Virus record (IMG/VR): IMGVR_UViG_3300038443_002533
Coordinates: 192,001-256,000 of that record
Direction: 5' to 3' (one strand)
Source of the DNA: a virus
Lineage: Duplodnaviria > Caudoviricetes
DNA length: 64,000 nt
Under the pieces are notes generated by a model, which saw only the letters and a list, made by a program, of their open reading frames with translations, was not told where the DNA came from and made no database searches. Of the stretch, positions 5,189-62,708 are shown one piece after another; the stretch's first letter is position 1, and every line of letters begins with the position of its first letter. The position numbers and the translations under genes were made by a program.

Positions 5189-5226
5189 GCCTACCACCCT
5201 GCCCCCGACGGGGTGGGGTAGTATGC
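5183..5226. repeat. CATA-hairpin-TATG element
   Basis: GCATAAGC-stem-loop-AGTATGCCGTCTATT; flanks nearly identical to the 13647 copy. Confidence 0.7.
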
Positions 5227-5258
5227 CGTCTATTCCACAACCAAGAAAAGGAACTACC

Positions 5259-5570
5259 ATGTCTACTTCCGTCATCAAAGTCCCCGTGAACGATCAAGCA
5301 GCACTGCATTCCACGTTCGAAGGTCGCCGCCGCCCATCCTTGGGCGCTGTCTTTCAGCGCATTCTGACCGAGAAGAATATCGACGATACGAAGCTCGCCA
5401 CTCTCATCGATCAATGGATTGAACGTACGGGTGGCGAACTCACCGACCGTAGCGCTGAACATGAAGCAAAATACTGGAATATGCATTTGAAAGATCCGAA
5501 CCTGTCATGGGTGCGGTTCTGCGTCGGTTTGACTATCGTCGGAGTCAATGAATTGACGTTGTTGGCGTAA
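5259..5570 (+). CDS. hypothetical helical protein; probable distant paralogue of 50622..50924
   Basis: Start at ATG 5259 (AAAGGA); C-terminal (L/M)SW..F...L..(V/L)G pattern shared with 50622. Confidence 0.6.
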   Translation: MSTSVIKVPVNDQAALHSTFEGRRRPSLGAVFQRILTEKNIDDTKLATLIDQWIERTGGELTDRSAEHEAKYWNMHLKDPNLSWVRFCVGLTIVGVNELTLLA

Positions 5571-5667
5571 GTTGAATTAGCTTCAAAAGTTGCTGCGGTT
5601 AAAGAATATTGGCAAAACAAACACTATAGTACCACTATCTTTAACCCGGTAATACAAGGAGCTAATC

Positions 5668-6231
5668 ATGCGTAAGTCAGCGAATGAGCAAGACACGATC
5701 GTGGTGGCAGCGACCGGTAAATCAAAGGGTAAGCCAGCCGACACTGTGATCAAGGTCATGGAGTTGGTGGAAGAAAACCTCACCCATCCGAAGATCGAGG
5801 TGATCGACAACAAGCACCCGGCCAAGCCGGTGAAAGGCACGCGCTACAAAAAGGTCGAGGCGAAAGACGCCAATCCGGTGCATCAAAGCAAACCCAAAGC
5901 CAAAGCAGCGAAACCCAAGGAGAAGACTCAATCCTTGGTGAAGGAAATCGACGCGACGGCCGATGCGACCTTGGCGGTATTGCGCCAAGAAGAAACCAAA
6001 GCGGTGTTCGATACCGCGAACCGCTGGGCCAGCCGGGAAGACCTGACGCCCCTGGAACGGTGCCATGGCACGGCCCATGAAGTCTACGTAATGGACCATC
6101 CGCCATCCAAGGCAGGGCACAAGCAACAGCAAGCCCGACACGAGTCGTACATGACGCAATTCGATCAACACTTCCTCGGGGAAATCGAACAGCGTCGTAT
6201 CCGCGCTGCGCGTGAACTCTTTACCAATTAA
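5668..6231 (+). CDS. RAAKDLF-array member 1
   Basis: Lys-rich N-terminus; C-terminal module WASREDLTPLERCHGTAHE...EQRRIRAARELFTN. Confidence 0.8.
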   Translation: MRKSANEQDTIVVAATGKSKGKPADTVIKVMELVEENLTHPKIEVIDNKHPAKPVKGTRYKKVEAKDANPVHQSKPKAKAAKPKEKTQSLVKEIDATADATLAVLRQEETKAVFDTANRWASREDLTPLERCHGTAHEVYVMDHPPSKAGHKQQQARHESYMTQFDQHFLGEIEQRRIRAARELFTN

Positions 6232-6302
6232 TTTTTGAGCGAAAACGATAATCATGGGGGTGCAAGCCTCCATGATTATTAGTTTCATTGAAAGGATCGA
6301 CC

Positions 6303-7022
6303 ATGTTTTTCGATGATGGGGACGATAGCGATGAAGAAAGACAAGAAAGAGAGAATCTCAAGAAGATTACCGGTACGGTGATTACAATTTTAGGCATTCC
6401 TAAAGATGCGAGCGCGGCGGGTATCAACACACTGGTCAATGAGGTCTCTGAAACTGCGCTGAACAACATGCGCGATGTGGAAGTCTCCCACGTATCATCG
6501 GTGCCGGTTTTCACCGCGCGTAACATTGAATTGTTGGAATCGAAAGAAAACCTAGAAGATAAAACGCTGAGTCAGCCCATTGGGCGGGCGATGGCGACGA
6601 TTATTCACGCTGTCACGGAGTTGGAAGAGCGCGAAGGAAATTTAGAACGCGAACGTCAGTGGACAAGCCTCACTGAAGAAGAACAACAGGCGCTTATCAA
6701 AAAGCATCAACGCGACGAACGCGAATGGAATAAGCAGGCAGCTATCAACGCGGAACATCGACGGCAAGAGGAACTCGACAACGCTTTTGATATCGCGCAG
6801 AAATGGGGTAATCGCGCCGGACTCACCAACCAAGAAGTGGCCCATGGTGTCGCGTACGATTTCCATCGCCTCCATGCTCACCCCCATACCGTGGATGTCG
6901 AGACAGGTGCTGTCAAAATGTACAACCCTGCTCAAGATTACGCTGACCACTATCAAACCCATTTCGCGGAACAAATTCAATCACGCACGATTCGTGCGGC
7001 GAAAGCCCTATTCGGAGAATAA
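6303..7022 (+). CDS. RAAKDLF-array member 2
   Basis: Start ATG 6303 (AAAGGA); KWGNRAGLTNQEVAHGVAYD...QIQSRTIRAAKALFGE. Confidence 0.8.
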   Translation: MFFDDGDDSDEERQERENLKKITGTVITILGIPKDASAAGINTLVNEVSETALNNMRDVEVSHVSSVPVFTARNIELLESKENLEDKTLSQPIGRAMATIIHAVTELEEREGNLERERQWTSLTEEEQQALIKKHQRDEREWNKQAAINAEHRRQEELDNAFDIAQKWGNRAGLTNQEVAHGVAYDFHRLHAHPHTVDVETGAVKMYNPAQDYADHYQTHFAEQIQSRTIRAAKALFGE

Positions 7023-7025
7023 ACC

Positions 7026-7682
7026 ATGCCTATCAAACAACAACGTGAGATGGAAGTTTCGGTGAAGGGTCGAACCTTCATGGTGAAGTATGAATGCTTG
7101 AAGAACGAGACCGTGAGCCCGGTTGAATTTCACGCGGCGCTGGAAGAAATCATCCAGATGAGCGGCGGCATCCGCGCTGGTTCACTCACGGGCATGTCGC
7201 AAAATAGCTTGCGGCAAAACTTTACTTTCCGCGAAGTCAGCAGCGATGAGCAGATCGAGCAGTATCACGCGGTCGAGACCATCAAGCAATTCATGGAAGG
7301 GATTGACGCTGTTGGTGATCGCGCTTTAATAGAGACCGTTTCGCCGCAATTCGCCAAAGTTTTCCAACAGTTGCGCGAAGGAGAACTGACTGCCGAAGAG
7401 GGGGTTAGTATCATGAATGACGCTATCGCGCTGGCGCGTCAAAACCAGCACCAGAAACATCAGCAACGTTACCTGGATATCGCCGAGCAATGGGCGAACA
7501 AACCGAATCTAACGTTGCGGGAAGCTTGTCATGGTGTCGCTTATGACACTTACTGCGTCGCTCATCCCGAACAACCCAAAGTCATGGCGCGTCAAGAATA
7601 CGGTCAACGTTACGATAGCCATTTCGTTGACCAAATCAAAAACCGCCAGATCAAGGCGGCCAAAGATTTGTTTGGAGAGTAA
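7026..7682 (+). CDS. RAAKDLF-array member 3
   Basis: QWANKPNLTLREACHGVAYD...QIKNRQIKAAKDLFGE. Confidence 0.8.
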   Translation: MPIKQQREMEVSVKGRTFMVKYECLKNETVSPVEFHAALEEIIQMSGGIRAGSLTGMSQNSLRQNFTFREVSSDEQIEQYHAVETIKQFMEGIDAVGDRALIETVSPQFAKVFQQLREGELTAEEGVSIMNDAIALARQNQHQKHQQRYLDIAEQWANKPNLTLREACHGVAYDTYCVAHPEQPKVMARQEYGQRYDSHFVDQIKNRQIKAAKDLFGE

Positions 7683-7683
7683 G

Positions 7684-8127
7684 ATGAAAGGTACTCATGC
7701 CAACATCGATCCTATCGTCGATCTATATCAACGGTTTTACGTAAAGAGCAATAAGTTAAATGGCCAAGTGGATGATGAAGTGCTCGACCGTTTAACTGCT
7801 GAGTATGCCGACGATGTGAAGCGCGGGCGAGATGTCGATAAGGTTGTCGACGAGTTAACTGCAAAAGCCCTACGCTGGCAGTCTAAACGACAACACAGTG
7901 AAGCGTGCGAATTCTTCAACATCGCTGAGATGGTCGCTACCACGCCTGATATCACGGTGAGTGAAGCCTGCCATAAACTTGGGAAATTCTACTATTTGGC
8001 CAACCACAAGGTCAAAGGCGATCCCCAGGTTCTTTCTCAAAAGTATAACCAACTCTACGACAACCACTACACGAAACAAATCGAAGCGCGCCAAGTCCAG
8101 GCAGCCAAAGACCTTTTCGGGAATTAA
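7684..8127 (+). CDS. RAAKDLF-array member 4
   Basis: Start ATG 7684; EACHKLG...QIEARQVQAAKDLFGN. Confidence 0.8.
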   Translation: MKGTHANIDPIVDLYQRFYVKSNKLNGQVDDEVLDRLTAEYADDVKRGRDVDKVVDELTAKALRWQSKRQHSEACEFFNIAEMVATTPDITVSEACHKLGKFYYLANHKVKGDPQVLSQKYNQLYDNHYTKQIEARQVQAAKDLFGN

Positions 8128-8129
8128 CC

Positions 8130-9284
8130 ATGGCCCATAACTCGCAAGACATCGTGGGGGAAATCACCCTCAAAGAAATGACACCCGTCATCCGCGCGGT
8201 GTTTAACTGTTACAACCTTTCAATGAACCCACAAAGTCCTGGGGTGTATGCGTTCTGCACTGGCGAATCGTTCAGTCATTTCGGTATCGATGGTAACGGT
8301 ACGTGGGGTGAATTCATCGAAGACCTCGTTGATCTCGCCGTCGAACTCAAGGTCAGCGATGGCGACTATGCTGCCGGAGATTATGGTTACGGTCTTATCG
8401 TTAAGCTTTTGCTGACGCACTTTGGTCAGGGTAACCACCCCGCCGCCCACGAGCTGATTCAGATTGCGCAAGGGGCGTCGGAGTACGATAACATCGAGAT
8501 GTGGTATTTGTTTGATCTCGCCAAGCTGTTGGATGATGGCCATGGCCTTCATGCGTACCAGTTGGGCAGTGCGTGGTATTGCTCGAAACCCAGGCCAGGT
8601 GAGTTCGGCGGTTACAGTGAATTTCAGAACCAAAATGTAAAGATGTACCGCACCTCGGCAATGGTTGACCAGCATGCTCCGGCCGTCTCGACCCTACTGG
8701 ACGAAAAGAGCTACGAGCAAGTCGGAGCGATGTACGCCAGGGAAGCTGATGCACTCATCGGCGGGATCATTGATCCTTACGCGCAGCACCAGGTCGCCTG
8801 TCACGTGATCAAGAACTTGAACGACCATTACAGCAGTATGTTCGTCGAGCAACCCGCCAGTAACGATCCAACCACCGCTCAGAGCTACGAGACTACCGCT
8901 GTTCGGATGACGACGGATGAAGCGCATGCTGAAATCGCGCACTCGATGTACCACATCGCGCGCAAATGGGCGGATATGCCGGCTACTATCGACAATTACA
9001 CGTTGATCACGGGTGCGCTGGGTGAATTCACGCAACTGCTCCAGGAGGGTAATGGTGCCACCATACCGCCGATGCAGCTGTACCCCATCAACCCCACCGA
9101 CCAAATTTACGACCCCACCGTTTACCGCAATAACGAAATGGAAAAAGGGCGTTGGAACTTTAATCAACCGCTGCCACTCGTCGACCCCGTCTCGAACGTC
9201 AGCCTGTCTCAATCGTTCGAAGATATTTCGCGTGGCCTGGAGATGAACCGCATTAACGCTGCGAAAAAGATGTTTGGTTCTTAA
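8130..9284 (+). CDS. RAAKDLF-array member 5; N-terminal domain resembles an ICE-borne conserved hypothetical protein
   Basis: Motifs TPVIRAVF, DDGHGL, WYCSKPRPGEFGG; ends NRINAAKKMFGS. Confidence 0.8.
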   Translation: MAHNSQDIVGEITLKEMTPVIRAVFNCYNLSMNPQSPGVYAFCTGESFSHFGIDGNGTWGEFIEDLVDLAVELKVSDGDYAAGDYGYGLIVKLLLTHFGQGNHPAAHELIQIAQGASEYDNIEMWYLFDLAKLLDDGHGLHAYQLGSAWYCSKPRPGEFGGYSEFQNQNVKMYRTSAMVDQHAPAVSTLLDEKSYEQVGAMYAREADALIGGIIDPYAQHQVACHVIKNLNDHYSSMFVEQPASNDPTTAQSYETTAVRMTTDEAHAEIAHSMYHIARKWADMPATIDNYTLITGALGEFTQLLQEGNGATIPPMQLYPINPTDQIYDPTVYRNNEMEKGRWNFNQPLPLVDPVSNVSLSQSFEDISRGLEMNRINAAKKMFGS

Positions 9285-9320
9285 CCCAACCGATTTCACT
9301 AATAACGAAAGGATATCACC

Positions 9321-9842
9321 ATGACGGTTATTCAAGGTTTTAGCCAAATTAAACAACTCGACGTGCTGTTCGACAAAGATGGTTACCCCGTTAATCCAAG
9401 CACACGGGAGGTTCTCGCCGACCTTACTTATATTCAACTTTATATCAATTCTGATTTTCCCAAACACGGGGAAGGAATCGATAGCGGTGGTGTGTATGGG
9501 TTCGAGTCCACGATCGGTTTTTCGATGGGTTACGGTTATTTGTACCGATGGCGTGAGCAATTGGGAAAGATGATTGGATATCCAGCTAAACCAACCGATC
9601 ACGGTGATTCTTACATGGAAGGCGCCTATCAAGCAGGCGCCGGTCCGTTCTATGAACTGATTTGGTTTACCGATAACAATGGCGTGATCAACACAGCATT
9701 CTGCCAAAAACTGCTCAAGGATTTTGAAGAATGGAATGAACGCGCGAAAGCTCTAGGTGACGAAAAGTTCTATTCGGGTTACGAGTGTTTCTTGGCTGTA
9801 TTTCAGAAAGCTGCTGATAACGGCGTAGTCAACTATCAATAA
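9321..9842 (+). CDS. hypothetical protein interrupting the array (no C-terminal motif)
   Basis: Own A/C leader and SD; FYELIWFTDNNGVI...AADNGVV. Confidence 0.75.
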   Translation: MTVIQGFSQIKQLDVLFDKDGYPVNPSTREVLADLTYIQLYINSDFPKHGEGIDSGGVYGFESTIGFSMGYGYLYRWREQLGKMIGYPAKPTDHGDSYMEGAYQAGAGPFYELIWFTDNNGVINTAFCQKLLKDFEEWNERAKALGDEKFYSGYECFLAVFQKAADNGVVNYQ

Positions 9843-9861
9843 CAGCAACGAAAGGATACCC

Positions 9862-10860
9862 ATGCCGCAAGACAACGAACCAAAGAGTTGGCAGAATGGT
9901 TGGGCTCAAGCAACACTGGCGTGGCAAATCTGCGCGAGTATCCACCGAACCTACGCGAAAGATAAAGATCCTTTCTTTACCACCCGTCAAAACGATTTTA
10001 TCAATAACACCGAACGTGCCCGGCAAAAGTATCTGGCACAGCAACCTAAGGATATCACCATGACCAACAAACGCGCCGCGCGCCAGTTCTTCACTGATGA
10101 AGATTATCGGAAAGCCATCCGCAAAACCGCTATTCGCGATATCGAGCAGAGTATCAAATTGGCTGACGATGAAGAACGTCGGGCGAAAAATGGTACGGTA
10201 CAGGAAGAATATTACCACCCGCCAGTCGATATGGCTGACGTCGCCGCCAACGCCATTATTAACAATCTCGATGATCGCGGTGGCGTGAACCTCGATTTCG
10301 ATCCAGAGATCAATCGCGAGATCGCTGACACGGTGGCTGAGATCGTGCGTCAGGCCACGGCGCCCGACAACAACATCTACGAACGTACACCCACGATCGA
10401 TCTCCACCCCTACACGCAACTCAACACCCCTGACTTAAAATCGCGGGACGGTGAAGTTTACCCGCAGCACATTCGTGAATTCTTGTTCGACCACATCATC
10501 GACAAAGCGATCGAACACGGCGAAGAACCCGGCGGATATACGCCGGTCGAACGGTGTCTGCGTACGGCACGCAGCATCATCAACGCCATCGATGGCGGCG
10601 CCGGCAATCAACCTATCGGGCAAGGTCTGCCTTTGTTGCAGTTGATCTTGGCACCCCACCCCCGTTATGTCGAAGCTCGGGTACGGCACGAAGAACCGAT
10701 GTTGCCCGAGAATGAGGTGATGGTCGATTACGGGTTGCTGCCACCCAACGATTATCAAACCGGCATGGCAGATGCCTTCGACCGCCGCTTCGATCAACGG
10801 TTCGACGACCAAATCAAAGCCCGCACGATCCGTGCAGCTAAAGATCTTTTCGAGGGATAA
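9862..10860 (+). CDS. RAAKDLF-array member 6
   Basis: YTPVERC...DQIKARTIRAAKDLFEG. Confidence 0.8.
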   Translation: MPQDNEPKSWQNGWAQATLAWQICASIHRTYAKDKDPFFTTRQNDFINNTERARQKYLAQQPKDITMTNKRAARQFFTDEDYRKAIRKTAIRDIEQSIKLADDEERRAKNGTVQEEYYHPPVDMADVAANAIINNLDDRGGVNLDFDPEINREIADTVAEIVRQATAPDNNIYERTPTIDLHPYTQLNTPDLKSRDGEVYPQHIREFLFDHIIDKAIEHGEEPGGYTPVERCLRTARSIINAIDGGAGNQPIGQGLPLLQLILAPHPRYVEARVRHEEPMLPENEVMVDYGLLPPNDYQTGMADAFDRRFDQRFDDQIKARTIRAAKDLFEG

Positions 10861-10862
10861 AC

Positions 10863-11510
10863 ATGGGCCTGACTTTTACACGGGATTTTTACACCAACAA
10901 AGATTATCAGGAAGATATCCGAAACGTCGCTCGGCTTCATTTGGCTGAAATTCCTGTTCATCAGCCAGTTGCGGCTATCTTTCCCGAATACGAAATCAAA
11001 GATACCGCGGAGCGCGTAGCCTTGGCCGCCCTCGCCAGCATCGCAGAGATGGAAAATGCGGAGATGCTCGGTAAAGATAACGCTTACCGTGAAGACTACG
11101 TCGATCGTGTCGCTGAAATCATTCGTCAAGGAATGGCCCCGAGTTCACACGATGCACCCGTTCTCGATGCGGCGCAGTTCGATACGCAACCAGTGGAGAT
11201 GAACAAACCACTCGATCTGTTCGAACGCGCGCATGTGAAGTGGGGATTGGAACGTTGGGATGGTGTACAGGGGGCGTTCATGACCGCCGAGAAATGGGCA
11301 TGTCGTACCGACCTTACGGAGCGTGAACGTTGTCATGGCGTCGCGCATGACGTCTATCATCAGGCTGGCACCCGCGTTACACTGGACCGGATCGGGCAAG
11401 ACATGCCCGTGAACCCAGGTCAGGACTATGCGAACTTTTACGAAGGCCAGTTCGGTAGCCAAATCAGGAGCCGCACCATGAGAGCAGCGCTCGATTTGTT
11501 CAAGGATTAA
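10863..11510 (+). CDS. RAAKDLF-array member 7
   Basis: KWACRTDLTERERCHGVAHD...QIRSRTMRAALDLFKD. Confidence 0.8.
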   Translation: MGLTFTRDFYTNKDYQEDIRNVARLHLAEIPVHQPVAAIFPEYEIKDTAERVALAALASIAEMENAEMLGKDNAYREDYVDRVAEIIRQGMAPSSHDAPVLDAAQFDTQPVEMNKPLDLFERAHVKWGLERWDGVQGAFMTAEKWACRTDLTERERCHGVAHDVYHQAGTRVTLDRIGQDMPVNPGQDYANFYEGQFGSQIRSRTMRAALDLFKD

Positions 11511-11515
11511 TCGCC

Positions 11516-12295
11516 ATGAAACGTGAAGAATACTTACCCCCTACCGACCCGAACGATCCCTCCTATAGATCCGCAAAAGGTATCATCAGCGCAGTGCACG
11601 ATTTCGCTGACCGTGGCGTCGTTTACGACATGTGGCCAATCGATGACCCGATTCGGGAAGCGGCGTTGTGTGTAGTCAGTGCCGTGCAACTGAAAGGGGG
11701 TAGTACGGTCGATAAGGCGCTGATGAAACTGCCAATGGACCAGAGACGCACCCTCGTCGACACGATTCGTAGCGTCATCGAAATCAGCGTCGATAAAATC
11801 AACCACGCCGGAGACCACGTTCACCAAATCGGCTCACCATTTCCCGATAACCCCAACGTGCTCCCGAAGATGACGCAGGCAGAACAACTCTGGGTAATCG
11901 CCAAAGAAGCGCACATCATCGCCAACCATTGGGACATGTTGCCTGATGAACTCGGTCAACGTGAGCGCATCATGGGGGCGGTGCACGATGTGCTCAGTCT
12001 GTTCCAGAATGGTAATCCCTCAGTGCCGGCCATGGTGTTGACACCGATCGATCCGGAAACCGATGAAGGGTGCGCTGCTATCATCCAACGCGATGGTGAA
12101 TTGATGGGGTTGGATTGGCAATACGGTCAACCCATGTACCCCGCACATCCCGCCCCTTCCCCCAACGCACAACTCTTTCACATTAACAACGCCCCTGGCT
12201 CGTTGACGCACACGTTCCAGGGTGTTTATGAAACCCTGCGCGAGCGTTATCGCACTTCGGCCCGCGACCTCTTTGGAGACCCTAGCAATGACTAA
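11516..12295 (+). CDS. RAAKDLF-array member 8
   Basis: HWDMLPDELGQRERIMGAVHD...RERYRTSARDLFGD. Confidence 0.78.
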   Translation: MKREEYLPPTDPNDPSYRSAKGIISAVHDFADRGVVYDMWPIDDPIREAALCVVSAVQLKGGSTVDKALMKLPMDQRRTLVDTIRSVIEISVDKINHAGDHVHQIGSPFPDNPNVLPKMTQAEQLWVIAKEAHIIANHWDMLPDELGQRERIMGAVHDVLSLFQNGNPSVPAMVLTPIDPETDEGCAAIIQRDGELMGLDWQYGQPMYPAHPAPSPNAQLFHINNAPGSLTHTFQGVYETLRERYRTSARDLFGDPSND

Positions 12296-12749
12296 CAAAG
12301 CCTTGAGCATCGACGACATCGGGAAAAATAACCCGTACGAAAACACCCCAATCCTTACCCGAGAAGAAGCACTTGACGCTATCGCTCGCGCCGCGCTTAA
12401 CAAAGCAGAGCTGATGTGGGGCGAATCTCGAATGAGTTCGCGACTCACTATCGATGATCGAGTCTATGGTGCCGTTTATTCAACACTGAAATTACTGCAA
12501 GAAGGAGTGGAGGGGCGTATCCCGCCGTTTGATTTGGTGCCGCAATTGCCGTTGGACGAAGCCACGACAGAACCCACGATACCCGTCCGGCGTGAAGAAA
12601 AGATTGTCCTAGGCGGCTGGCCGCAAGATCCGATCTCGCTTGCCGCCACCCCGACCGACCCGGTTAGCTTGACGTCGACGTACGCCGACATTTACGACAG
12701 TTTCCGCGAACGCCTGGCGGCCAGTGCCCGTGACTTATTCCGCGATTAG
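12288..12749 (+). CDS. RAAKDLF-array member 9
   Basis: Start ATG 12288; DDRVYGAVYSTLKLLQEG...RERLAASARDLFRD. Confidence 0.78.
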   Translation: MTNKALSIDDIGKNNPYENTPILTREEALDAIARAALNKAELMWGESRMSSRLTIDDRVYGAVYSTLKLLQEGVEGRIPPFDLVPQLPLDEATTEPTIPVRREEKIVLGGWPQDPISLAATPTDPVSLTSTYADIYDSFRERLAASARDLFRD

Positions 12750-12757
12750 GGGGGAAT

Positions 12758-13642
12758 ATGCCACGTGACGATAATCCTAAACCCAAGAAGCCGGAAGACT
12801 TGGGGATCCCTTTCAGTCCGGAAGCGCAACGTGAGCTGATCCGGGAACAAGTTAACGAATTAATAGATAAAGCCGCAAAGGAGGCGGTGGACAAGGTCTT
12901 CAAGGAACGTTTTCCCGATAACCCTTACGAACAACCTGCCATCGATCCTGATGCGCCCCGTGCCTATACCAGTGAAGAGGTTGTTGACCAATTCATGGAA
13001 TCCGTAGCACATCGGATTCGCTACTGGCAAACACATCCGAACTGCGGCACGATGGAAGACCGGGTGTCAGGGGTGGTGCATTCGCTATTTGCAATTCTCG
13101 ATGGCCGCACTTTGCCTTTCCCTGCTTTTGACCTTGTGCCGGCGCCATGCGATGGGGATAAAGAGTATCATCTCGAAAAAGGTGAGAACTACTACGATCC
13201 TGAAGCAGTGATTTCAACGAATCTAACCCATCTTCTCTTTCCAAAACTGCATGAACTTTATCCGGATGCAAAACCGGAATCGATGGAGAAACAACTTACA
13301 CCGGAAAAAATGCGTGAAACGTTTGTTGGGCAAGCGATTGATATTGCTGATATTGTATCGCTCACTATACCTGATAAACATGAGGCATGTCAAAAGGTCG
13401 TGCGAGATATGATCAGGTTGATCGATGGTGAATATAGCCCAGGCATCCCACCGTTCATGCTGTTTCCTGCTCCCTCGCGCGAATTTAATCGCAATATGGA
13501 AGAGTACCGTCAACCGACTTGGGGTAATGATATCCCCCTTAACCGTAAAGCGCCGACGTACGGTGCGGAAGATTCGTTGGTGCAAACCTACGATGAAATC
13601 CGTGACCGCCAACACCGAGCAGCACGTGACATGTTCAAGTGA
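12758..13642 (+). CDS. RAAKDLF-array member 10 (internally duplicated domain)
   Basis: Two copies of a (I/L)(L/I)DG...P(A/P)F.L.PAP unit; ends RDRQHRAARDMFK. Confidence 0.78.
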   Translation: MPRDDNPKPKKPEDLGIPFSPEAQRELIREQVNELIDKAAKEAVDKVFKERFPDNPYEQPAIDPDAPRAYTSEEVVDQFMESVAHRIRYWQTHPNCGTMEDRVSGVVHSLFAILDGRTLPFPAFDLVPAPCDGDKEYHLEKGENYYDPEAVISTNLTHLLFPKLHELYPDAKPESMEKQLTPEKMRETFVGQAIDIADIVSLTIPDKHEACQKVVRDMIRLIDGEYSPGIPPFMLFPAPSREFNRNMEEYRQPTWGNDIPLNRKAPTYGAEDSLVQTYDEIRDRQHRAARDMFK

Positions 13643-13646
13643 CCGA

Positions 13647-13683
13647 GCATAAGCTCCAGCCCCGGTCAGGGGCTGGAGTATGC
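13647..13683. repeat. CATA-hairpin-TATG element closing the array
   Basis: GCATAAG-CTCCAGCCCC-GGTCA-GGGGCTGGAG-TATGCCGTCTATT. Confidence 0.75.
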
Positions 13684-14312
13684 CGTCTATTCTTTTTTCA
13701 CCCGTGGAGACTATTCTACGACACCACTTACCCACCCTTATCATGCCAATCGCCATCTATCGCCACTTCAAACTGACCGTGGCTGTTTCGCGTCGAATGA
13801 CGCCCGTCGTTCTGAGCTTACACCGCCGTCGTTTCAAGTCGCTATACATGGAACAAAACAAAGAGGGTGTGTGGGTCACGCGTGTGGACTTTCACCACCT
13901 GTCGCGCTACCGGGATCAACCGATCACCAAACGTGAAGCGTGGGAATTCCAAAACGGCACGTTCTCCTTCATTCAAGAACACTACCGTCGGGAACATTGC
14001 ATTCACACTTGCTCGACGATCGTACCGCCGGCCAGTACCGTGGTGTGGACAGAGAACGGTCAAATCCGACCCATCCATGATCAGTTTGAAACTGAGATCT
14101 CGGCAATGGTTGCGGCACAGCGGTATTTGCATCACCACAAACCCAACCCGTACGACTTCATGATCGCGCAACTCGATCTGAATCCCAACACTTCACCCCG
14201 TCAACCCACGGTCACCTCGACGTTGTTGCCACCACTAGAAATGGTGGAAATCAATGCCCAGGTCGACCGCAGTGAGAACTCGGAAAAATGGGCTCAACTC
14301 TTTCTCGACTGA
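13680..14312 (+). CDS. hypothetical protein (true start probably downstream)
   Basis: 210-aa ORF whose ATG lies inside the hairpin's TATG flank. Confidence 0.5.
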   Translation: MPSILFSPVETILRHHLPTLIMPIAIYRHFKLTVAVSRRMTPVVLSLHRRRFKSLYMEQNKEGVWVTRVDFHHLSRYRDQPITKREAWEFQNGTFSFIQEHYRREHCIHTCSTIVPPASTVVWTENGQIRPIHDQFETEISAMVAAQRYLHHHKPNPYDFMIAQLDLNPNTSPRQPTVTSTLLPPLEMVEINAQVDRSENSEKWAQLFLD

Positions 14313-16154: not shown

Positions 16155-17684
16155 ATGAGAAAGTTTTCCTACAAAGCCCCCGAGCCCCAGGCGCCGGTGG
16201 TACCCGCGCAACCGCAGTTGTCGCTGGAAGAGCAGGCCATCTTGCAAGACGAACAAAATGAGGTGGTCGCTAAGCTGGATGAACAAAACGATGACATCGA
16301 CCGCCTGGTGGACACCGACGCCAGCATCCAAGACACCGTCCTGATCGTCGACCAAACGCCCGAACTCGGCGTGGTGGAACAAGCCCTGGTGGGCGCGGTA
16401 GCGGATGCAGCCGTGGCCGGCACCGACGCGGAACCTGAACAAGTCATCAGCGCCACGCCGGAAGGCTTGGCCAGTGAAAGCTTTGTTTCGGAAACTCTGG
16501 AACGCCTGAAGAAGATCTGGGAAAAGATCAAGGAATACTTGATCAACGCCTGGAAGTCGCTGGTGGAATATCTGGCAGGCGAAAAGCGTCAAATCGAAGC
16601 CGTGCAGAAAGAAGCCGAGAAGGTCGAAGCCTTCCTCGAAGAAAACAAGGCGATCCTGCAACTCGAATACGTGCCCAATCACCCGATCTTGCTGGGCCAT
16701 GATCCGGCGGTGAAAGAACGTGCTGACGCCAAGAAAGCGCAAGATCAAGCGGACTACGATAAGCGGGTGGCTGACGAAGCCCAGGCCAAGGCGGACTCCG
16801 AACAACGTGGTGAAGAAGAGCGCAAGGCCAAGATCGAACACGCCCTGGCCGAGCTGCGCAACAAAATCGCCAGCCATCATTTCCAGTTCAAGGGCAACGT
16901 CAGCCTGATCTCGACCACGAGTGGCGTGCCGAAAGACTTCGAGAAGGAAGTGGTGAATCTGTCCAGCTACGCCCAGCAAGTCCACAAGGCCATCGGCCAG
17001 ACCCTGCGCGAACTGTGCCACGCCTTTGACGATGTGCTGGGTAAGTTCGACAGCGCATCCCCGCAAGCGGCGATTCCGGGCTTTGTGGATCGTTTCCACA
17101 AAGACTTCGAGGTGCTGGGTCGCGCCATCGGCGAGATGAAGAACCATGACGGTCTGCTGCGCGCGCACACCCGGGTCCCCCTTCTGGGTCAGTTCGATGT
17201 GGAAATCACGGACGAGAAGAAAGAAGGCGACGTTAAGCTGGCAGCCACCCTCGGCGCAGTCGGCCGTGCCGCCATGAAAGTCTCGTATGGCACTGGCAAG
17301 AAAGAAGGTGACGTACCGCTGCTGCCGGAACTGCTGCAACCGGTTACAACGGCCACCATCAAGAAGTGGGCCGAGTTCCAACTGGGCCATGACGCCGTGG
17401 GTCTGGAAAACACGCTGAAAGAGTACGGTGAGAAGTTCGTGCCGAAACTGGACCGTCTGGTGCAAGTCCAGCAATCGGTCAAAGGCGTGGCCGACGAGAA
17501 CGAATCGTATCACGTCATCCAAGGTTTGATCAACGTCTGCCGTGGCCTGGACAAGATGATCATCGAGTTCACCCTCAAGTATGGCTCGTCCGTCCGCAAC
17601 ATCATGCAAAGCGCGCTGCGTTACCAACACGAAGCCGCCCAAGAACGCATTCGCCTCTACAAAGAAGCGGTCGCCAGCATCTAA
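16155..17684 (+). CDS. phiKZ-like internal head (ejection) protein, gp93/gp162-type family
   Basis: Acidic propeptide with protease sites LSLEE and LASES; shared ALVGAVADAAVAGTDA and L.K.WE.IK helix; strong late-gene codon bias. Confidence 0.8.
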   Translation: MRKFSYKAPEPQAPVVPAQPQLSLEEQAILQDEQNEVVAKLDEQNDDIDRLVDTDASIQDTVLIVDQTPELGVVEQALVGAVADAAVAGTDAEPEQVISATPEGLASESFVSETLERLKKIWEKIKEYLINAWKSLVEYLAGEKRQIEAVQKEAEKVEAFLEENKAILQLEYVPNHPILLGHDPAVKERADAKKAQDQADYDKRVADEAQAKADSEQRGEEERKAKIEHALAELRNKIASHHFQFKGNVSLISTTSGVPKDFEKEVVNLSSYAQQVHKAIGQTLRELCHAFDDVLGKFDSASPQAAIPGFVDRFHKDFEVLGRAIGEMKNHDGLLRAHTRVPLLGQFDVEITDEKKEGDVKLAATLGAVGRAAMKVSYGTGKKEGDVPLLPELLQPVTTATIKKWAEFQLGHDAVGLENTLKEYGEKFVPKLDRLVQVQQSVKGVADENESYHVIQGLINVCRGLDKMIIEFTLKYGSSVRNIMQSALRYQHEAAQERIRLYKEAVASI

Positions 17685-17738: not shown

Positions 17739-19115
17739 ATGCAACGTCATTTCAAACCGCTGCCCGTACCAGTACCTACGCTGGAGTTGTCACTGGAAGA
17801 AGAAGCCATTCTGACCGATGAAGTTCGCCAGAACGAAAACGAACTGGAACAACAGGCAAACGACGTCGATCAACTGGGTGACATCATCGTTACCATGGGG
17901 GACGTACAGACCGTCGTGTCCAACACCCCCGAAATAAAAGCCATCGACCAAGCGCTGGTTGGCGCGACTGCCGATGCCGCTGTAGCGGGTACGGATGCCG
18001 ATCCGGAAGATCTCGTCGGTAGCATGCTGCCCGACGAAGGCGTCAGCGCCGAGAGCTTCGTGCAGTCCATCAAAGACACGCTGGTCAAGATGTGGGAATC
18101 GATCAAGTCGGTCATCAGCAAAATGTGGGACCACATCAAGACGTTCTTCCAGAACATCGCTAACTTCTTTAACGGCACCAAGCGCCGGATCAAGAAGCTG
18201 CAAGGTATCTTGCATGACAACTCTTTGTCGGGCGCGGCTGTACTCGAAGATGACAAATTCAAAGGCAACCCAGCCTATCTGCTCATCCCCAACCGAAACG
18301 GACGCCAAAACGGCGGGGTGGCGTTCAGTGCGCCTCACTCGGTCAAAGAGGAGTACGAGGCGTTTGCCGAAGTCGCCATGAACACCTGCGTCTGGCTGAC
18401 CGCTGGCGGCCGTGATCTGATGCAAGTCACGGGTAAGATGGGTGAGAAGTTCAAGAACGTCTCTGACATGGAAGCGGACTATTCGGGCCTCGTGAAAGAG
18501 GTTCAGGATGGTTTGGCGGAGCTGGACAAAGCACTGCGGGTGGGTTACAAGAACACCGGCGGCAACAGCGAACGCTCTGGCCACGCGCTGATGGGTGGTC
18601 TGCATTTCAGTGGTCTGGGGATTGAAAATAGTGGCAGCACCCTGACCAAGACGCTGGAATTCCTGAACCAGATGAAATACAAGGTCGAGTCGGAAGTCGC
18701 CGAGAACCCGAAGACGTATGTCGTGCGGCTTACCGGCAAAGTCGACGACGTCAAGGCCATGCTCAAAACGGCCGAAGAATGGGTGCAGATGGGCGAAGCC
18801 AAGAAGATCATGTTCGAGACCTTGGTAAAGCAAGCCGAGACGGCGCGCAGCCAGATCGACAACGGGCTGAAAGGGTTGAAAGAGCAAGACCAGCTTACGC
18901 CGGAACGCAATCGTGAACTGAAACTCATGATCTCGCTCAACGGCAAAATCAACTCGATCGTTACCAAGACCATCTCGGGCATCGTGACTCATGGCACCCA
19001 CGTCACCAACGCGGTGCTGGACTACTCGATCGAGTCGGTGGAATCGATGATGGGGGTTACGAAGACGGGCGGTATCCATAAGGGGCCGGCAAATCCTTTC
19101 CCGAAAACAGCTTGA
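17739..19115 (+). CDS. phiKZ-like internal head protein paralogue
   Basis: N-terminal ~150 aa homologous to 16155 (LSLEE, VSAES, ALVGATADAAVAGTDA); divergent C-terminus. Confidence 0.8.
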   Translation: MQRHFKPLPVPVPTLELSLEEEAILTDEVRQNENELEQQANDVDQLGDIIVTMGDVQTVVSNTPEIKAIDQALVGATADAAVAGTDADPEDLVGSMLPDEGVSAESFVQSIKDTLVKMWESIKSVISKMWDHIKTFFQNIANFFNGTKRRIKKLQGILHDNSLSGAAVLEDDKFKGNPAYLLIPNRNGRQNGGVAFSAPHSVKEEYEAFAEVAMNTCVWLTAGGRDLMQVTGKMGEKFKNVSDMEADYSGLVKEVQDGLAELDKALRVGYKNTGGNSERSGHALMGGLHFSGLGIENSGSTLTKTLEFLNQMKYKVESEVAENPKTYVVRLTGKVDDVKAMLKTAEEWVQMGEAKKIMFETLVKQAETARSQIDNGLKGLKEQDQLTPERNRELKLMISLNGKINSIVTKTISGIVTHGTHVTNAVLDYSIESVESMMGVTKTGGIHKGPANPFPKTA

Positions 19116-24083: not shown

Positions 24084-24187
24084 TTATGTTCTGACTTCGT
24101 CAGTAGATAATTATCTAATTATTTGAGCTGAATAAGCCCCAAAGCAAATTCCTTTCCCAATTTCTCCTGTAAGGGTTGGTTATAACC

Positions 24188-26380
24188 ATGAAAAGCATCA
24201 TCTTCAATAGCGACCGTGAAACCAAAGGCCTGGGCGGCTTCCTGGCACGCACCCATGACCTCGCGAATAACTTCGTTCACGCTGGCAGCGCAGCCAAAGT
24301 CGGTCAGAACCTCCTGGCCGTCGAATCGATCTCCAGCAACCCCGCGGCCGTCAACGAACTGCAAACCACGGCGCAGGAACTGCTGGCCAAGTTCAACCAA
24401 TTCGCCGCCGAATCGTTCCCGGTCACGGACAAGGCCGGCCGCGTCGGTCACGCCTACAACGACAACCAGATGAAGGCCGCGACCATCGCCGCCATGCTGG
24501 GTCACGACCTGAAGGGTGCGATCAACGCCCCAACCAAACCGGCCATGAGCCTGGAAGGCATCGCCGTCGCCGGCGTGCTGGACCAAACCCCGTACGAGCG
24601 CCGTGCTTCGAACGAAGCCTACGACGAACAATCGACGGCAACGTCGGTGGCCTTCTCGGTCGCCTACAACCTGGAATGCGCCCGCCAATCCGAGCTGGCC
24701 GAAACGCTGTTCCCGACCGTCGTGATTCCGCCGAACGAAGCCGGCCTGTTCATGTCGATCGACCTGGCCCTGCTGCAAGACGACGCCAACCGCCAGATCA
24801 GCGGCGCCGTGACGGACTTCCACCGTTACAACGTCATCCGTGCGCAGACCTACCCGGAACTGCTGCAAAACGACGCGTCCGACCTGGTGCCGGTGCTGCG
24901 TGACGAATCCAAGCAGAACTTCGTCGCCGACACGATCATCGCCCCGATCGTCCGCAAGATGGACAACGGCGAAGAAATCACCACCAGCTACCTGAAGACC
25001 GGTGCCAAGTTCGACCTGCTGTCGATCTCGCACACCGACACGATGGTCGCAAAGGGCCTGCCGAACCAGACCGACTCGATCGATCCGGGCGTCTTCCTGG
25101 AAGAGATCCTGATCCAACTCCAGTCGGCCGACGGCAACACCAAGGAAGTCATCAGCTTCAACGTCAAGGAACTGCCGGGCGCTGCCTACTACCAGGCACA
25201 ACAAGGCGACTACCGCGATCAACAACTGTCGTTCCAGAACGGCAGCCTGCTGATCAACGGCTCGACCACGACCGCTTCGGGCGCTGCTTCGACCCTGCTG
25301 GCTCCGATCGGCACCGGCGGCTACGAAGTCCGCCTGGCAGTCGACGTCTCCGGCCGCCTGAACCTGCAATTCGGCGCAGGCTCGGTCTACGGTCCGGCAC
25401 CGGAAGTCACTGCGGTTGCCAAGAACGGCACGCAAGTCTCGACGGCTTCGGGCGCTGGCGCCACGATCGCTGCCATCTTCGCCAACGCGTCGATCATCGG
25501 CTACAAACTGTACGCAAAGCGTTCGAACCTGAACCGCCGTCTGCGCGGCCAAACGATGGACACGAACACGAAGAAGCAGTTCTACCCGCTGAACCTGCTG
25601 GCTCCGGTCACCATCGTGCGTCCGCACTCGGCTGGCGACGTCAACGACGCGCGCGACCTGTCGTTCCTGATCTTCACGACCAAGACCCGCTCGTCGATCG
25701 ACGCGGTCGAAGTGCTGCAAGCGCACGCCGCAACGATGAAGTCGATGCAAGGCCAATACCACGTCCCGGGCGAATCGGTCGAGACGTTCGGTCTGGCTCG
25801 CTGGCTGCTGGATCCGTACTACGCGCACGACACCTACGTCGCACCGGACGTGGTCGATTCGATCAAGTCGTCCGAGCGCGCTGCCGACATCCAGGCATCG
25901 CTGGTCAACCTGATCCGTGACCACGTGTACAAAATGTGGCAACTGTCGTCCTACGGTCCGGCTTCGGCATCGCAGAACGGCGGCGTCGCAACGATCCCGA
26001 CGGTCATCATCGCCTGCGATCCGCGTATCGAACAGTACCTGAACATCACCGGCGACCTGCGTCTGCTGGGCGACAAGTTCCCGGTCAAGGTCGTGTCCGA
26101 TACGAACAAGAACCTCCGCGGCAAGCTGTACGTCACGTTCGGCAACATGGAAACCGCAGCGCAAGGCGTCCCGAACGTCCTGCACTTCGGCACCACCATG
26201 TATCGTCCGGAAATGACGATCATCCTGCCGGTCTCGCGCGATGGCCAGACCTCGAAAGAGATCACCGTCTCGCCGGCGTTCCGCCACTTCGTCAACCTGC
26301 CGCTCCTGGTCGAGATGGACGTGTCGGGCATCGAAGACGTGGTCGACGCCAAGCTGCCGATCGTAATGCACACCGTCTAA
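24188..26380 (+). CDS. major capsid protein (phiKZ gp120 type)
   Basis: ~730 aa; SLE/SNE maturation sites; AYNL...Q.E.AE.LFPT motif; extreme codon bias; synteny. Confidence 0.9.
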   Translation: MKSIIFNSDRETKGLGGFLARTHDLANNFVHAGSAAKVGQNLLAVESISSNPAAVNELQTTAQELLAKFNQFAAESFPVTDKAGRVGHAYNDNQMKAATIAAMLGHDLKGAINAPTKPAMSLEGIAVAGVLDQTPYERRASNEAYDEQSTATSVAFSVAYNLECARQSELAETLFPTVVIPPNEAGLFMSIDLALLQDDANRQISGAVTDFHRYNVIRAQTYPELLQNDASDLVPVLRDESKQNFVADTIIAPIVRKMDNGEEITTSYLKTGAKFDLLSISHTDTMVAKGLPNQTDSIDPGVFLEEILIQLQSADGNTKEVISFNVKELPGAAYYQAQQGDYRDQQLSFQNGSLLINGSTTTASGAASTLLAPIGTGGYEVRLAVDVSGRLNLQFGAGSVYGPAPEVTAVAKNGTQVSTASGAGATIAAIFANASIIGYKLYAKRSNLNRRLRGQTMDTNTKKQFYPLNLLAPVTIVRPHSAGDVNDARDLSFLIFTTKTRSSIDAVEVLQAHAATMKSMQGQYHVPGESVETFGLARWLLDPYYAHDTYVAPDVVDSIKSSERAADIQASLVNLIRDHVYKMWQLSSYGPASASQNGGVATIPTVIIACDPRIEQYLNITGDLRLLGDKFPVKVVSDTNKNLRGKLYVTFGNMETAAQGVPNVLHFGTTMYRPEMTIILPVSRDGQTSKEITVSPAFRHFVNLPLLVEMDVSGIEDVVDAKLPIVMHTV

Positions 26381-60136: not shown

Positions 60137-61369
60137 TTAGCGCGGATTGGCGTTCGACATCGAGCCCGTCCAAGTGACCATGTTATCGTCCGAGACGAAA
60201 TACCACAGGTCTTTGGCACCGGCCGAGGTGGTGCGTGGGGGCGGCGCACCGTCAACCCACTTGACGTTGTTGGGCCAAGCGATGGCGTAAGCGTTGCCGC
60301 TGTTGTCGTTGACCGTGGTGACGGCGAATTCCACCACCTTACCGGTCATGTCCCCGACACGGCTGGTGTCAAACCCGATCGAACCATTGCCAGCGATCGT
60401 GATGGTGAAGGCTTCCGCTTGGGAAATATCCACCGCCATGGTACTGGTCATATTCAACGCCACCAGATTTTGTGAACCGAGGCCACTGAATTGCGGCCGC
60501 AGGCTGTTGGCTTTCTTGCTCAGCGCGGTATTGATGGCATTGATCGAGCCTTGCAGCTTTTCAAACGCCATCAACACCGTATCGCCTTCCGCCAGACTGT
60601 CCGCCACCAGATTGGCCAGATTGGTCAGGTGCGTGCTCAGCACCCGGTCTTCAGTGAAGTACTTGTTGGTATTGCCTTCGCGGACTTGGTCGGTGTTGGC
60701 GGCAAAGCCGTCCAGAGCCAATTGAATCGCGAGGGACATCTCCGCCTTGGTCGGTACATTGAGTTGACTCGCCGACACCCCGTGTGGGTTTTCGTGGTCA
60801 GCGATGTGCAGCACCATGGCATTGCTGGCTTGGGTCAGGATCGCATCGACGATGCGGTTGATCGCATCCACCACATCCTTCATACCGACCATGTCTTGCA
60901 GATTCCAAGCATGCGGCACCGGTGGGAATACGTTCGGGTAACCGGCGACCATGTCCCAGCTGGTGGTGCGCGGGTTATGCACTTGGTCTGCCAGCAGCGC
61001 CGTGATGGTGGCTGCGTCCAGCGTCCATTCACCACCGATGGTTTGGTATTGATTGAAGATCAGCGTGCCGACCAGTTCCGTATTCAGGATCGTGATCGAC
61101 CCGTAGATCGGGTGCATACAGGCGCGCGAGGCGCCGATGAATTCGTGGGAAAAGTAGTAATCCACCCCCTGCACCAGCGGCCGAATATCGCCTTGCAACG
61201 TCTTGAAGCTGAGCGACATGCTCTCGCCAAAGAACGGCGCGAGTTTCGGGATCACGAAGGTATAAGCGGCACCGGCACCCGTGAGTGCCTGCAATTCGCC
61301 CTGGATGCGGTTAGCGGGAAGCTGACCCGTCGGATCAAAGGCATAAGTCGGATTGGCTAAGGTGGTCAT
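60137..61369 (-). CDS. phiKZ-like tail fibre / virion structural protein
   Basis: Y.FDPTG...NRI..E N-terminus, PP..H.W, ADHENPH; C-terminal beta domain like 53959. Confidence 0.75.
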   Translation of the reverse strand: MTTLANPTYAFDPTGQLPANRIQGELQALTGAGAAYTFVIPKLAPFFGESMSLSFKTLQGDIRPLVQGVDYYFSHEFIGASRACMHPIYGSITILNTELVGTLIFNQYQTIGGEWTLDAATITALLADQVHNPRTTSWDMVAGYPNVFPPVPHAWNLQDMVGMKDVVDAINRIVDAILTQASNAMVLHIADHENPHGVSASQLNVPTKAEMSLAIQLALDGFAANTDQVREGNTNKYFTEDRVLSTHLTNLANLVADSLAEGDTVLMAFEKLQGSINAINTALSKKANSLRPQFSGLGSQNLVALNMTSTMAVDISQAEAFTITIAGNGSIGFDTSRVGDMTGKVVEFAVTTVNDNSGNAYAIAWPNNVKWVDGAPPPRTTSAGAKDLWYFVSDDNMVTWTGSMSNANPR

Positions 61370-61463
61370 GTAAGGCCTTCAAAGAGGTCAAGGGTGATGC
61401 CGGATCATCCTATGCTAAGGTCCCGGCGACTATATAATTTCTCAAAAGAAGGATAAGTTCATC

Positions 61464-62708
61464 ATGTACCAACTCGTTTCCGCCCTGGTTAAACCGCTTG
61501 GCACGAACAGTCGGTGGCGCGCCATGGGTATTGATAACATGCCCTTGTCGGCCCTGTTTAACGATTTCAGCCGGGTGATTGCGATCTTGAGTAATCCGGT
61601 CCTCACCCACCAAGTCAGTCTGGACATGGAATCCTTCCGCGCTGACCTCGGCAGCTCGTCCCTGACCTTCAATGGTTGGCTGGCCAGTCAAGCCGATTTG
61701 GCTTTGCCCACTTCGGATTCCATCCCCACCATCAATACCCGTTACGCCCATTTCTCGGATGCGGTGCGCTCGGGCTTTAAGATCACCCCAACCCATCCCA
61801 CTATCGCACCCGATTCTCCCTTGCCGGTAGGTGACAAGACCCACGTCCTGCTGACCCGGGACGGGGAAGATTACGAACTCATGTATAAGCATTGCTTGGT
61901 CAATGTGAATGGGTTCTATCATCAAACCGATTACAGCACCGAAGGTTTGTATGTCACCGATGGCATGAAGACGTGCCTGAAGTCAGGTCGCAATGAACTG
62001 GGGTTGTTGTCGTTCTTGAGTCTCGGTGAACTGAGCTTCATGGCGATCACCGACGACATGATTTATACCCATCGACCGGAACAGCAACTGCGCTTTAACT
62101 GTTACGTGAAGACCGGGCAAGATCTGTCGAACAAAACCGTGATGCTGGTGTTGGGCGGGTATCTGCATCTGCTGGATGATCGGACGTTTTACCGCACCGG
62201 CCCCGGTTCATTCGGGATTGACTTCGATCAGATTCCGTTGATCGAACGTTACTACGAGTCGCACAAAGTCATCGACTTCGACAGTCTGAATGTGGAAACC
62301 GCTCCCACCAATCCGGACCAGGTGAGTGTGAACAGTCTGTACAGTGATGCGGTGCTCCGTAAGTACCTGCAACTGTCGCAGAGCTTCCTGGTGGTGCTCG
62401 ATAACACTGACATCTTCACGGATCGGGTCGAACTGCGCCAATCCCCGCTGATCGGGGTGTACACCTCGATGACTTCGCCGATCTACCCCCTGTTGCTGGG
62501 TCGTGGCCGGCATGAAGTGTTCTGGCCGCGCAAGGAAGCCGATCGGTATTCGATCAATACCACGGCGGCTTGGGAAGGGCATCGCAACTTCGATACCACA
62601 GTCACCAAGGACTTGGTGTCGGTAAGTGATGCCAATATCGTCTCGCTCGGGTTTCGCAACTCGCAAGCGTGTCTGCAATTGATCGGCAGCGACATCTATA
62701 CGGCTTAG
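61464..62708 (+). CDS. phiKZ-like virion structural protein
   Basis: MYQLVSA, HCLVNVNG.YH, LVLGGYLH motifs. Confidence 0.7.
   Translation: MYQLVSALVKPLGTNSRWRAMGIDNMPLSALFNDFSRVIAILSNPVLTHQVSLDMESFRADLGSSSLTFNGWLASQADLALPTSDSIPTINTRYAHFSDAVRSGFKITPTHPTIAPDSPLPVGDKTHVLLTRDGEDYELMYKHCLVNVNGFYHQTDYSTEGLYVTDGMKTCLKSGRNELGLLSFLSLGELSFMAITDDMIYTHRPEQQLRFNCYVKTGQDLSNKTVMLVLGGYLHLLDDRTFYRTGPGSFGIDFDQIPLIERYYESHKVIDFDSLNVETAPTNPDQVSVNSLYSDAVLRKYLQLSQSFLVVLDNTDIFTDRVELRQSPLIGVYTSMTSPIYPLLLGRGRHEVFWPRKEADRYSINTTAAWEGHRNFDTTVTKDLVSVSDANIVSLGFRNSQACLQLIGSDIYTA

Follow-up and report, generated by a model that had tools for sequence, protein, structure and literature searches.

Several described systems invite comparison with the locus considered here, a set of ten genes at positions 5668-13642 on the + strand of a 64,000-nucleotide stretch of viral DNA (the window, which covers bases 192001-256000 in an IMG/VR virus record of 272,470 bp that has direct terminal repeats), whose products carry variable N-terminal parts on one constant C-terminal module. 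The inner-body proteins of phiKZ (PF12699, phiKZ_IP), which possess N-terminal propeptides, resemble the array in forming paralogous multi-gene sets in phiKZ-like phages; in the array, by contrast, the constant part is a C-terminal, predicted dimerising domain, and PF12699 is not listed at E<=1 for any of the nine array proteins scanned (all but g10). Terminal targeting peptides, such as the capsid targeting sequence of T4 internal proteins and the cargo peptides of encapsulins, are short (10-20 residues) and sit on unrelated cargo. They share with the array the presence of one constant terminal element, whereas that of the array is a homologous domain of 80-140 amino acids (aa), inherited by duplication and found nowhere else in the genome. 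The membrane-targeting sequence of MinD is a C-terminal amphipathic LFG(G) stretch that needs a dimer for avidity; the array proteins likewise end in ..LFG(G), on a stretch that may be amphipathic, but Pfam and NCBIfam reveal no MinD/ParA ATPase in the members scanned, an acidic residue stands beside their LF, and their hydrophobic face (I-12, A-5, A-4, L-1, F0) is poorer. Finally, small stand-alone phage proteins assigned to PHROGs 27353, 29367 and 11061 (Acinetobacter phage AB1 gp38, Salmonella phage seszw gp74, phiKZ gp257/gp258 and RP12 ORF183) have the same T..E, A..W and ERC.G helices as the array, and one array subtype (B) also has in common with them a DG..P.F.L.P segment. Unlike the array genes, they are single small genes without variable N-terminal domains, and their products end in ..GENYY...LHE[LFY] and not in R.IRAAKDLF.

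Considered as a whole, the array is best read as a tandem family that is old and confined to one clade of phiKZ-like phages, with ten modular, probably accessory proteins. Its members are homologous and modular, the array is syntenic among related phages, and the terminal motif is under selection at the level of the protein. As for what these proteins do, we hold, with slightly more belief than doubt, that their genes are co-transcribed and that they are accessory proteins in which a common dimerising domain displays N-terminal domains that differ from one member to the next. The original prediction had noticed that ten of eleven consecutive open reading frames (ORFs) share an ending of the R-x-I-R-A-A-K-D-L-F type, and all ten of the strings it quoted were recovered. 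Six-frame translation of the whole genome gives 890 ORFs of 100 aa or more; only 11 have [AS]A.[DEKA][LM]F no further than 7 residues from their end, and the array genes account for 10 of them. The Ala, Leu and Phe codons inside the motif vary freely among the paralogues, so that selection must act on the protein and not on a DNA repeat; a DNA-level repeat or gene conversion as the source of the motif is ruled out by the same differing codons. A hidden Markov model (HMM) of the last 110 residues found no copy in this genome beyond the array, and the motif is not present in the replication, RNA polymerase (RNAP), capsid and phiKZ_IP internal head proteins that the genome encodes. Being confined to one paralogue family, the motif is therefore not a general address label.

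Homology between the paralogues is significant (BLAST E down to 6e-18; HMM E 1e-20 to 1e-30), and all-vs-all BLAST and HMM comparisons extend it well upstream of the ending: what is conserved is a helical domain of 80-140 aa, and not one C-terminal helix as had been supposed. The upstream A..W....T..ER..G helix pair, which had also been proposed, is real and can be seen in the paralogue alignments. Two subtypes can be distinguished. Subtype A (g01, g02, g03, g04 and g08) has 80-110 C-terminal residues in common, and subtype B (g05, g09, g10 and g11) has 130-150, the longer module resulting from the inserted DG..P.F.L.P segment plus a variable loop. The family was thought to be undescribed, and this holds: when the array proteins were scanned against Pfam, PHROGs and NCBIfam, no match passed the cut-off except for the N-terminal module copy of g11, which matches phrog_27353 (E 2.8e-6), so that the only matches are PHROGs of unknown function and represent distant kin. 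Literature searches on the motif and on phiKZ gp257/gp258 returned unrelated matches only; the 'gp257' of the phage-nucleus import papers is the DNA ligase of PhiPA3 and not the phiKZ protein.

Eleven consecutive genes fill 5668-13642, the ten family members plus g06x, which lacks the motif. For three of them the start was moved to an ATG preceded by a Shine-Dalgarno sequence (g02 to 6303, g04 to 7684 and g10 to 12288). The first, g01 (5668-6231, 187 aa, subtype A), has a Lys-rich N-terminal part and is 70% identical to its orthologue in the sister contig L012. It is followed by g02 (6303-7022, 239 aa, subtype A), with an acidic N-terminus, by g03 (7026-7682, 218 aa, subtype A), which provides the models described below, by g04 (7684-8127, 147 aa), a minimal subtype A member, and by g05 (8130-9284, 384 aa, subtype B), with an N-terminal domain of ~250 aa. 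After g06x (9321-9842, 173 aa) come g07 (9862-10860, 332 aa), which bridges subtypes A and B, g08 (10863-11510, 215 aa, subtype A), g09 (11516-12295, 259 aa, subtype B), g10 (12288-12749, 153 aa), a minimal subtype B member with an 8-nt overlap with g09, and g11 (12758-13642, 294 aa), which contains two module copies, the N-terminal one resembling the stand-alone form and only the C-terminal one bearing the AARDMF ending. All lie on the + strand.

The N-terminal parts, which the alignments indicate to be conserved among orthologues, thus range from a Lys-rich tail to a 250-aa domain. They had been described as unrelated to one another; different N-terminal parts on a constant C-terminal module are indeed what the array contains, except that g07 and g08 have an N-terminal segment in common (E 8e-5) and that g11 carries a second module in this place. 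An N-terminus called ICE-like found no counterpart, since nothing ICE-like appeared in the Pfam and NCBIfam scans of the members. By predicted structure, the N-terminal domain of g05 (residues 1-214; 8130-8890) resembles hypothetical Pseudomonadota proteins of ~230 aa (ESM Atlas template modelling score, TM, 0.66-0.74); one cluster of such proteins bears the automatic name 'YecA family'. In one sister array, a 128-aa gene (L008:12541-12927) consists of the N-terminal fragment of a g07-type protein without the C-terminal module, and N-terminal parts therefore duplicate independently of the module.

A syntenic array is present in five related uncultured phiKZ-like contigs, at the same place and with the same flanking genes. 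These sister arrays have 7, 9 (plus the N-terminal fragment), 8, 9 and 9 members, each of them opening with a Lys-rich member and closing with one of the MPRD..AARDMFK type, and in a complete 271-kb relative all copies lie in a single array. Most array genes of the window have full-length orthologues in the sister phages, N-terminal parts included, at 29-70% identity; between the same phages the major capsid protein is 77-85% identical, and the divergence of the flanking accessory genes is similar to that of the array. Because the arrays are syntenic and the orthologues full-length, the family is taken to be an old modular one and not the product of a recent burst of duplication. The inserted gene g06x is different: it has no match to the family HMM, and its own family, to which no function is assigned, consists of proteins of ~160-190 aa that are widespread in phages and bacteria (Atlas model pLDDT 0.93, weakly like DUF1877). 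No orthologue of it was found in the sister arrays, and the slot behind the g05 orthologue is different in each of the relatives, so that g06x is best regarded as an insertion.

In another reading, the ten paralogues would bind each other through the common domain and co-assemble into one hetero-oligomer, possibly a late virion-internal or scaffold-like body, instead of acting as separate dimers. In support of this, the first and last members hold their position in six phages, the genes are tightly coupled and apparently co-transcribed, the residues of the predicted dimer interface are common to the paralogues, and genes for internal head proteins lie nearby. However, copy number runs from 7 to 10 among close relatives, members having been lost or gained, and this is a poor fit to a structure of fixed stoichiometry; moreover, the array proteins show no similarity to PF12699, and the stand-alone relatives are found in early regions. 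We consider such a co-assembly quite unlikely.

A module profile run against 1.84 billion cluster representatives (50%-identity clusters) retrieved 277 at E<=1e-3 and 62 at E<=1e-10, and about one third of the relatives are stand-alone proteins of ~100 aa that end in ..GENYY...LHE[LFY]. The names of the 120 stand-alone relatives listed are all 'hypothetical' or 'uncharacterized'. Among the 50,697 phage records of INPHARED, megablast detected no DNA-level similarity to the array block, and tblastn of g02 gave no match. Profile searches of the cultured phages FLC9, Xoo-sp14 and phiKZ yielded nothing at E<=0.01, and that of RP12 one weak match; RP12 (ORF183) and phiKZ (gp257/gp258) have distant kin of the stand-alone type only.

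The first half of the module is homologous to the stand-alone proteins. The trio of helices T..E / A..(Y)W / (E/D)RC.G is common to the array module and the stand-alone family; hhalign aligns the latter with subtype B (99%, E 9e-18, 71 columns) and with subtype A (96.8%, E 2e-10, 33 columns), and tblastn reaches the stand-alone family at E 1e-11. The DG....P.F.L.P segment that follows the second helix is present in subtype B and g07, but not in subtype A, which makes up half of the array. At the level of predicted structure, Foldseek superimposes g11 residues 66-164, that is, the N-terminal copy only, on AB1gp38 with TM 0.88 and a root-mean-square deviation of 1.5, and the same copy on the 105-aa AFDB entry A0A3G6MZU5 with TM 0.84, the structural relatives being all uncharacterised. 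Judged from these sequence comparisons, a stand-alone phage protein of ~100 aa probably gave rise to the first half of the common domain, to which the jumbo-phage subfamily alone would have added the terminal Y.D..F..I..R.IRAAKDLF(G) stretch. MAFFT places the stand-alone ..LHE[LFY] helix and the AAKDLF stretch in the same columns, whereas the profile alignments end earlier. Stand-alone homologues occur in Skatevirus, AB1 and N4-like phages, which are too small to be nucleus-forming jumbo phages. Their genes lie in early or accessory regions and, in prophages, beside an integrase or NinX; one of them (L022:4001-4309) directly follows N4 Gp1- and Gp2-like genes in the early region of a 72.5-kb N4-like contig.

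The AlphaFold2 model of g03 has a predicted local distance difference test score (pLDDT) of 93 and a predicted TM score of 0.77, and shows a beta-beta-alpha-beta-beta domain at residues 1-70 followed by helices, with the last 18 residues at 91-97; the model of g11 has a pLDDT of 83. When two copies of g03 were modelled together, the score was 0.69 vs 0.01 for the best of three controls. In the calibration, this value was attained by 20 of the 30 proteins whose solved structure is a pair of one chain, as against 1 of the 23 with a single-chain structure, although these counts are only rough for g03 because its alignment was user-made. Three runs agreed in at least 96% of contacts, and the partner had a pLDDT of at least 83. 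The symmetric interface covers residues 142-199, i.e., the conserved helix pair and the next helix, and includes the near-invariant A153, W156, H169, G170 and Y192, whilst residues 200-218, which hold the terminal motif, fall outside it. Homodimerisation of the common domain through the conserved helix pair is thus supported by modelling, although not proven. Searches with both models (g03 and g11) gave nothing at E<=0.001 against the PDB with Foldseek, and otherwise generic helical matches (wide VIA-align, best Z 7.4 and 6.1; ESM Atlas, TM<=0.33); such weak matches do not show that the fold is new.

On the reading that we favour, the ten genes would be expressed as one unit, as suggested by their tight packing and by last codons that carry the Shine-Dalgarno sequence of the next gene, and the common domain of their products would form homodimers via the conserved helix pair. 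Since the interface residues are common to the paralogues, mixed dimers may form too. Each N-terminal domain would in this way be displayed in two copies on a common scaffold. To go by its pattern of conservation, the terminal stretch would most probably be a helix packed against this scaffold, and the array proteins would probably act as non-virion factors in host takeover or in other accessory roles.

Among the 153 family proteins examined, the motif occurs in 102, in 78 of which the phenylalanine lies 1-3 residues from the C-terminus, and the family alignment gives the consensus Y-D-x-x-F-x-[DE]-x-I-[KR]-x-R-x-[IM]-R-[AS]-A-[KR]-[DE]-[LM]-F-G. The most conserved positions (I-12, R-9, A-5, A-4, L-1 and F0) share one helical face with two small residues at its centre, a pattern that appears to fit tight helix packing. 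Of the two ways of seeing it, a packed structural helix is somewhat likelier than an exposed docking surface.

The original prediction favoured the second of these, a sorting or docking tag. What stands of it is the combination of diverse N-termini with a constant C-terminal module; what does not stand is the short tag, since the module is a folded domain of 80-140 aa. In its present form, the idea is that the module, or its last ~12 residues displayed on the dimer, serves as a shared address label by which all ten proteins dock to a single phage structure or to a single import factor, so that ten different N-terminal 'cargo' domains would arrive at one place, with the chimallin shell, Imp1/PicA, the early vesicle and the procapsid as candidate receptors. 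The position of the phenylalanine so close to the C-terminus and the conserved flanking charges speak for it, as do the location of the stretch outside the modelled dimer interface and its less confident placement in g11; furthermore, the phage has ChmA and Imp1 homologues, phiKZ_IP internal head genes are 4 kb away, and encapsulin shells offer a precedent, their otherwise unrelated cargo proteins being loaded by C-terminal peptides. On the other side, no other protein of the genome carries the motif, be it in replication, transcription or inside the head, the tail of g03 is predicted at pLDDT 91-97 already in the monomer, which suggests that it is packed, and the first half of the module is found by itself, as a complete protein, in small phages that do not belong to the nucleus-forming jumbo phages, which also tells against a general sorting label. 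The phiKZ record marks gp244 as structural, but not the distant relatives gp257/gp258. With regard to a nuclear import signal at the terminus in particular, import in phiKZ and PhiPA3 is reported to rely on a recognition surface, a surface patch, and not on a terminal signal (10.1101/2024.03.21.585822). Overall, an address label is unlikely, and we give the same low credence to the more specific proposal that the dimer shows two exposed R..R.AAKDLF endings as a docking signal read by one clade-specific receptor.

Two further explanations concern the last residues alone. A MinD-like amphipathic ending, made effective by dimerisation, might anchor the proteins at the inner membrane or at an early lipid vesicle: ..K-D-L-F-G-G resembles the ..R-L-F-G-G tail of MinD, the hydrophobic face is one-sided, and the predicted dimer would supply two tails. 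That face, however, consists of three bulky hydrophobic residues (I, L and F) and two alanines, position -2, next to LF, is D or E in 85 of the 102 members, no ParA/MinD domain was detected in the members scanned, and in the g03 model the tail is confidently ordered against the domain, all of which makes a membrane anchor very unlikely. Even less credible is that x-D-L-F is a variant of the pentapeptide that binds the sliding clamp, recruiting the proteins to the host beta clamp. The clamp-binding consensus is QL[SD]LF, and D-L-F at a tightly kept C-terminal position does correspond to its last three residues, but the position of the consensus Gln is Ala in 96 of the 102 members, the motif continues upstream as a conserved helix of 20 residues, unlike a free peptide, the confident g03 tail (pLDDT 91-97, although 52-70 in g11) again speaks for order, and the sole clamp-related fold match was noise (Z 5.1).

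The genome itself, as far as its gene content indicates, is that of an uncultured phiKZ-like jumbo phage. Its major head protein (24176-26380 of the window) matches phrog_3231, and the closest match of one virion protein is in Burkholderia phage FLC9, at 38% identity. By tblastn with phiKZ proteins, homologues were found of chimallin (ChmA; gp54, 22% identity over 419 aa, E 3e-12), of the import factor Imp1 (gp69, E 6.5e-14) and of subunits of the non-virion RNAP (nvRNAP; E 1e-19 to 1e-85). The ChmA-like gene lies at 60473-62401 of the genome and the Imp1 homologue at about 72.2-73.7 kb. The phage thus encodes both shell and import factor, as chimalliviruses do, a property that says nothing about the array proteins. 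A phiKZ-type internal head protein gene (PF12699, 53.5 bits, E 2.9e-14) is located 4 kb downstream of the array, at 17739-19115. Beside it, 16155-17684 is perhaps a second gene of the phiKZ_IP type. The phiKZ_IP gene or genes form a separate unit, which starts after a hairpin and TATG at 16088.

Within the array, the intergenic gaps measure -8 to +8 nt, except before g02 (71 nt), g06x (36 nt) and g07 (19 nt). Where genes abut, the Shine-Dalgarno sequence of the next gene sits in the last codons of the preceding one: the two residues after LF are encoded by codons of the GGAGA-, GAGG- or AAGGA-type, 5-9 nt upstream of the next ATG, and no such codons follow LF where a gap or a terminator comes next (g01, g05 and g11). 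Since the codons after LF double as a Shine-Dalgarno sequence, the G-E or G-x ending of the proteins is explained. In the 71-nt gap between g01 and g02, a hairpin at 6247-6280 (+ strand; 15-bp stem, no T-run) may serve to attenuate the transcript behind g01, or else to stabilise it there.

The array had also been described as bracketed by two hairpins. Both exist and have identical flanks, AGCATAAG..TATGCCGTCTATTC: the upstream one (5190-5235, + strand) is a GC-rich stem followed by TATGCCGTCTATTC and is the likely upstream boundary of the transcription unit, and the downstream one (13654-13692, + strand), with its own copy of TATGCCGTCTATTC, appears to mark the end of the unit. As a bracket specific to this block they had to be discarded, since ~40 strong copies are present genome-wide. 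This punctuation element consists of a GC-rich stem of 9-14 bp whose flanks, (G)CATA and TATG(C), are mutually complementary, and it is often readable on both strands; in all five relatives, it is found at the same place before the array. Copies lie at 1816, 5222, 13679, 16088, 19122/19152, 19573/19610, 32362/32394, 52489/52522 and 62716/62747, as well as elsewhere in the genome, and the 3' flank often extends as TATGCCGTCT plus a T-run. In phiKZ, late promoters have TATG as their core, and transcripts start at its G (PMC4666361). A palindromic element carrying this core could thus be a terminator, an nvRNAP-type TATG promoter, or both, and it could also be a processing site. That a hairpin with the late-promoter core precedes the unit would suit the co-assembly of the ten proteins in a late virion-internal body, but TATG is also found on the opposite strand of many hairpins and may therefore be part of the stem and not a promoter.

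Between the upstream hairpin and the array there is a small gene of 103 aa that does not belong to the family (5259-5570, + strand); it is present in L011 and L013 but not in L005 and L008, and Pfam and NCBIfam scans of it gave no match. The ATG within TATGCCGTCTATT, at 5223 and 13680, is in frame with the downstream ORF (M-P-S-I..); as the start that bears a Shine-Dalgarno sequence comes further on, at 5259, this is probably a coincidence. Closer to the array, 58-83 nt before g01, a block of 26 nt (5585-5610, + strand; AAAAGTTGC...GGTTAAAGAATAT) is a candidate promoter or operator. All six phages have it in identical form, and this genome holds no second copy; its single genomic occurrence led us to reject it as a genome-wide promoter class, leaving a candidate control site specific to the array. 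GGTTAA within the block and TTAACC at 5641-5646 form an inverted repeat ~40 nt apart, a pairing without covariation. Taken together, the hairpins at both ends and the conserved block before g01 are consistent with co-expression of the ten genes. A different motif, CTATATCACT, has 15 copies in the genome at no more than one mismatch, 14 of the 15 on the + strand, among them those at 1850, 26550 and 46623 of the window; the copy at genome position 60379 lies 94 nt upstream of the ChmA-like gene, which makes it a candidate early promoter of this phage. It is not present upstream of the array.

Several observations weigh against accessory dimers with a packed terminal helix. The phiKZ-type internal head genes downstream make a head-related role conceivable by position, and the dimer is only a predicted one. 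In the terminal stretch, R-9, R-6, K-3 and D/E-2 are conserved beyond the needs of a purely structural helix; in g11, the last helix has a pLDDT of only 52-70 and follows a disordered linker, and may therefore not pack on its own domain. Both hhalign alignments with the stand-alone family end before this stretch, which therefore may not be an ancestral core element, and the AAKDLF subtype was not found in any cultured phage of the collections searched.

Tandem sets of paralogues are common in giant phages, and almost none of them is understood. The present array is at least well defined, with an undescribed domain family of 277 clusters in which one conserved surface is the predicted dimer interface and another lies at the very C-terminus; the descriptive finding is solid, and it is to be distinguished from a demonstrated mechanism. 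To our knowledge, no linear targeting signal has been recorded for the compartments of nucleus-forming phages. If the ending were a docking signal, it would be the first of its kind in such a phage, and proteins could be directed to a compartment simply by means of it. Should the ending be no more than an element of the fold, the array would still be a clear case of domain accretion on a dimerising scaffold and would offer a testable property for a family to which no function has been assigned.

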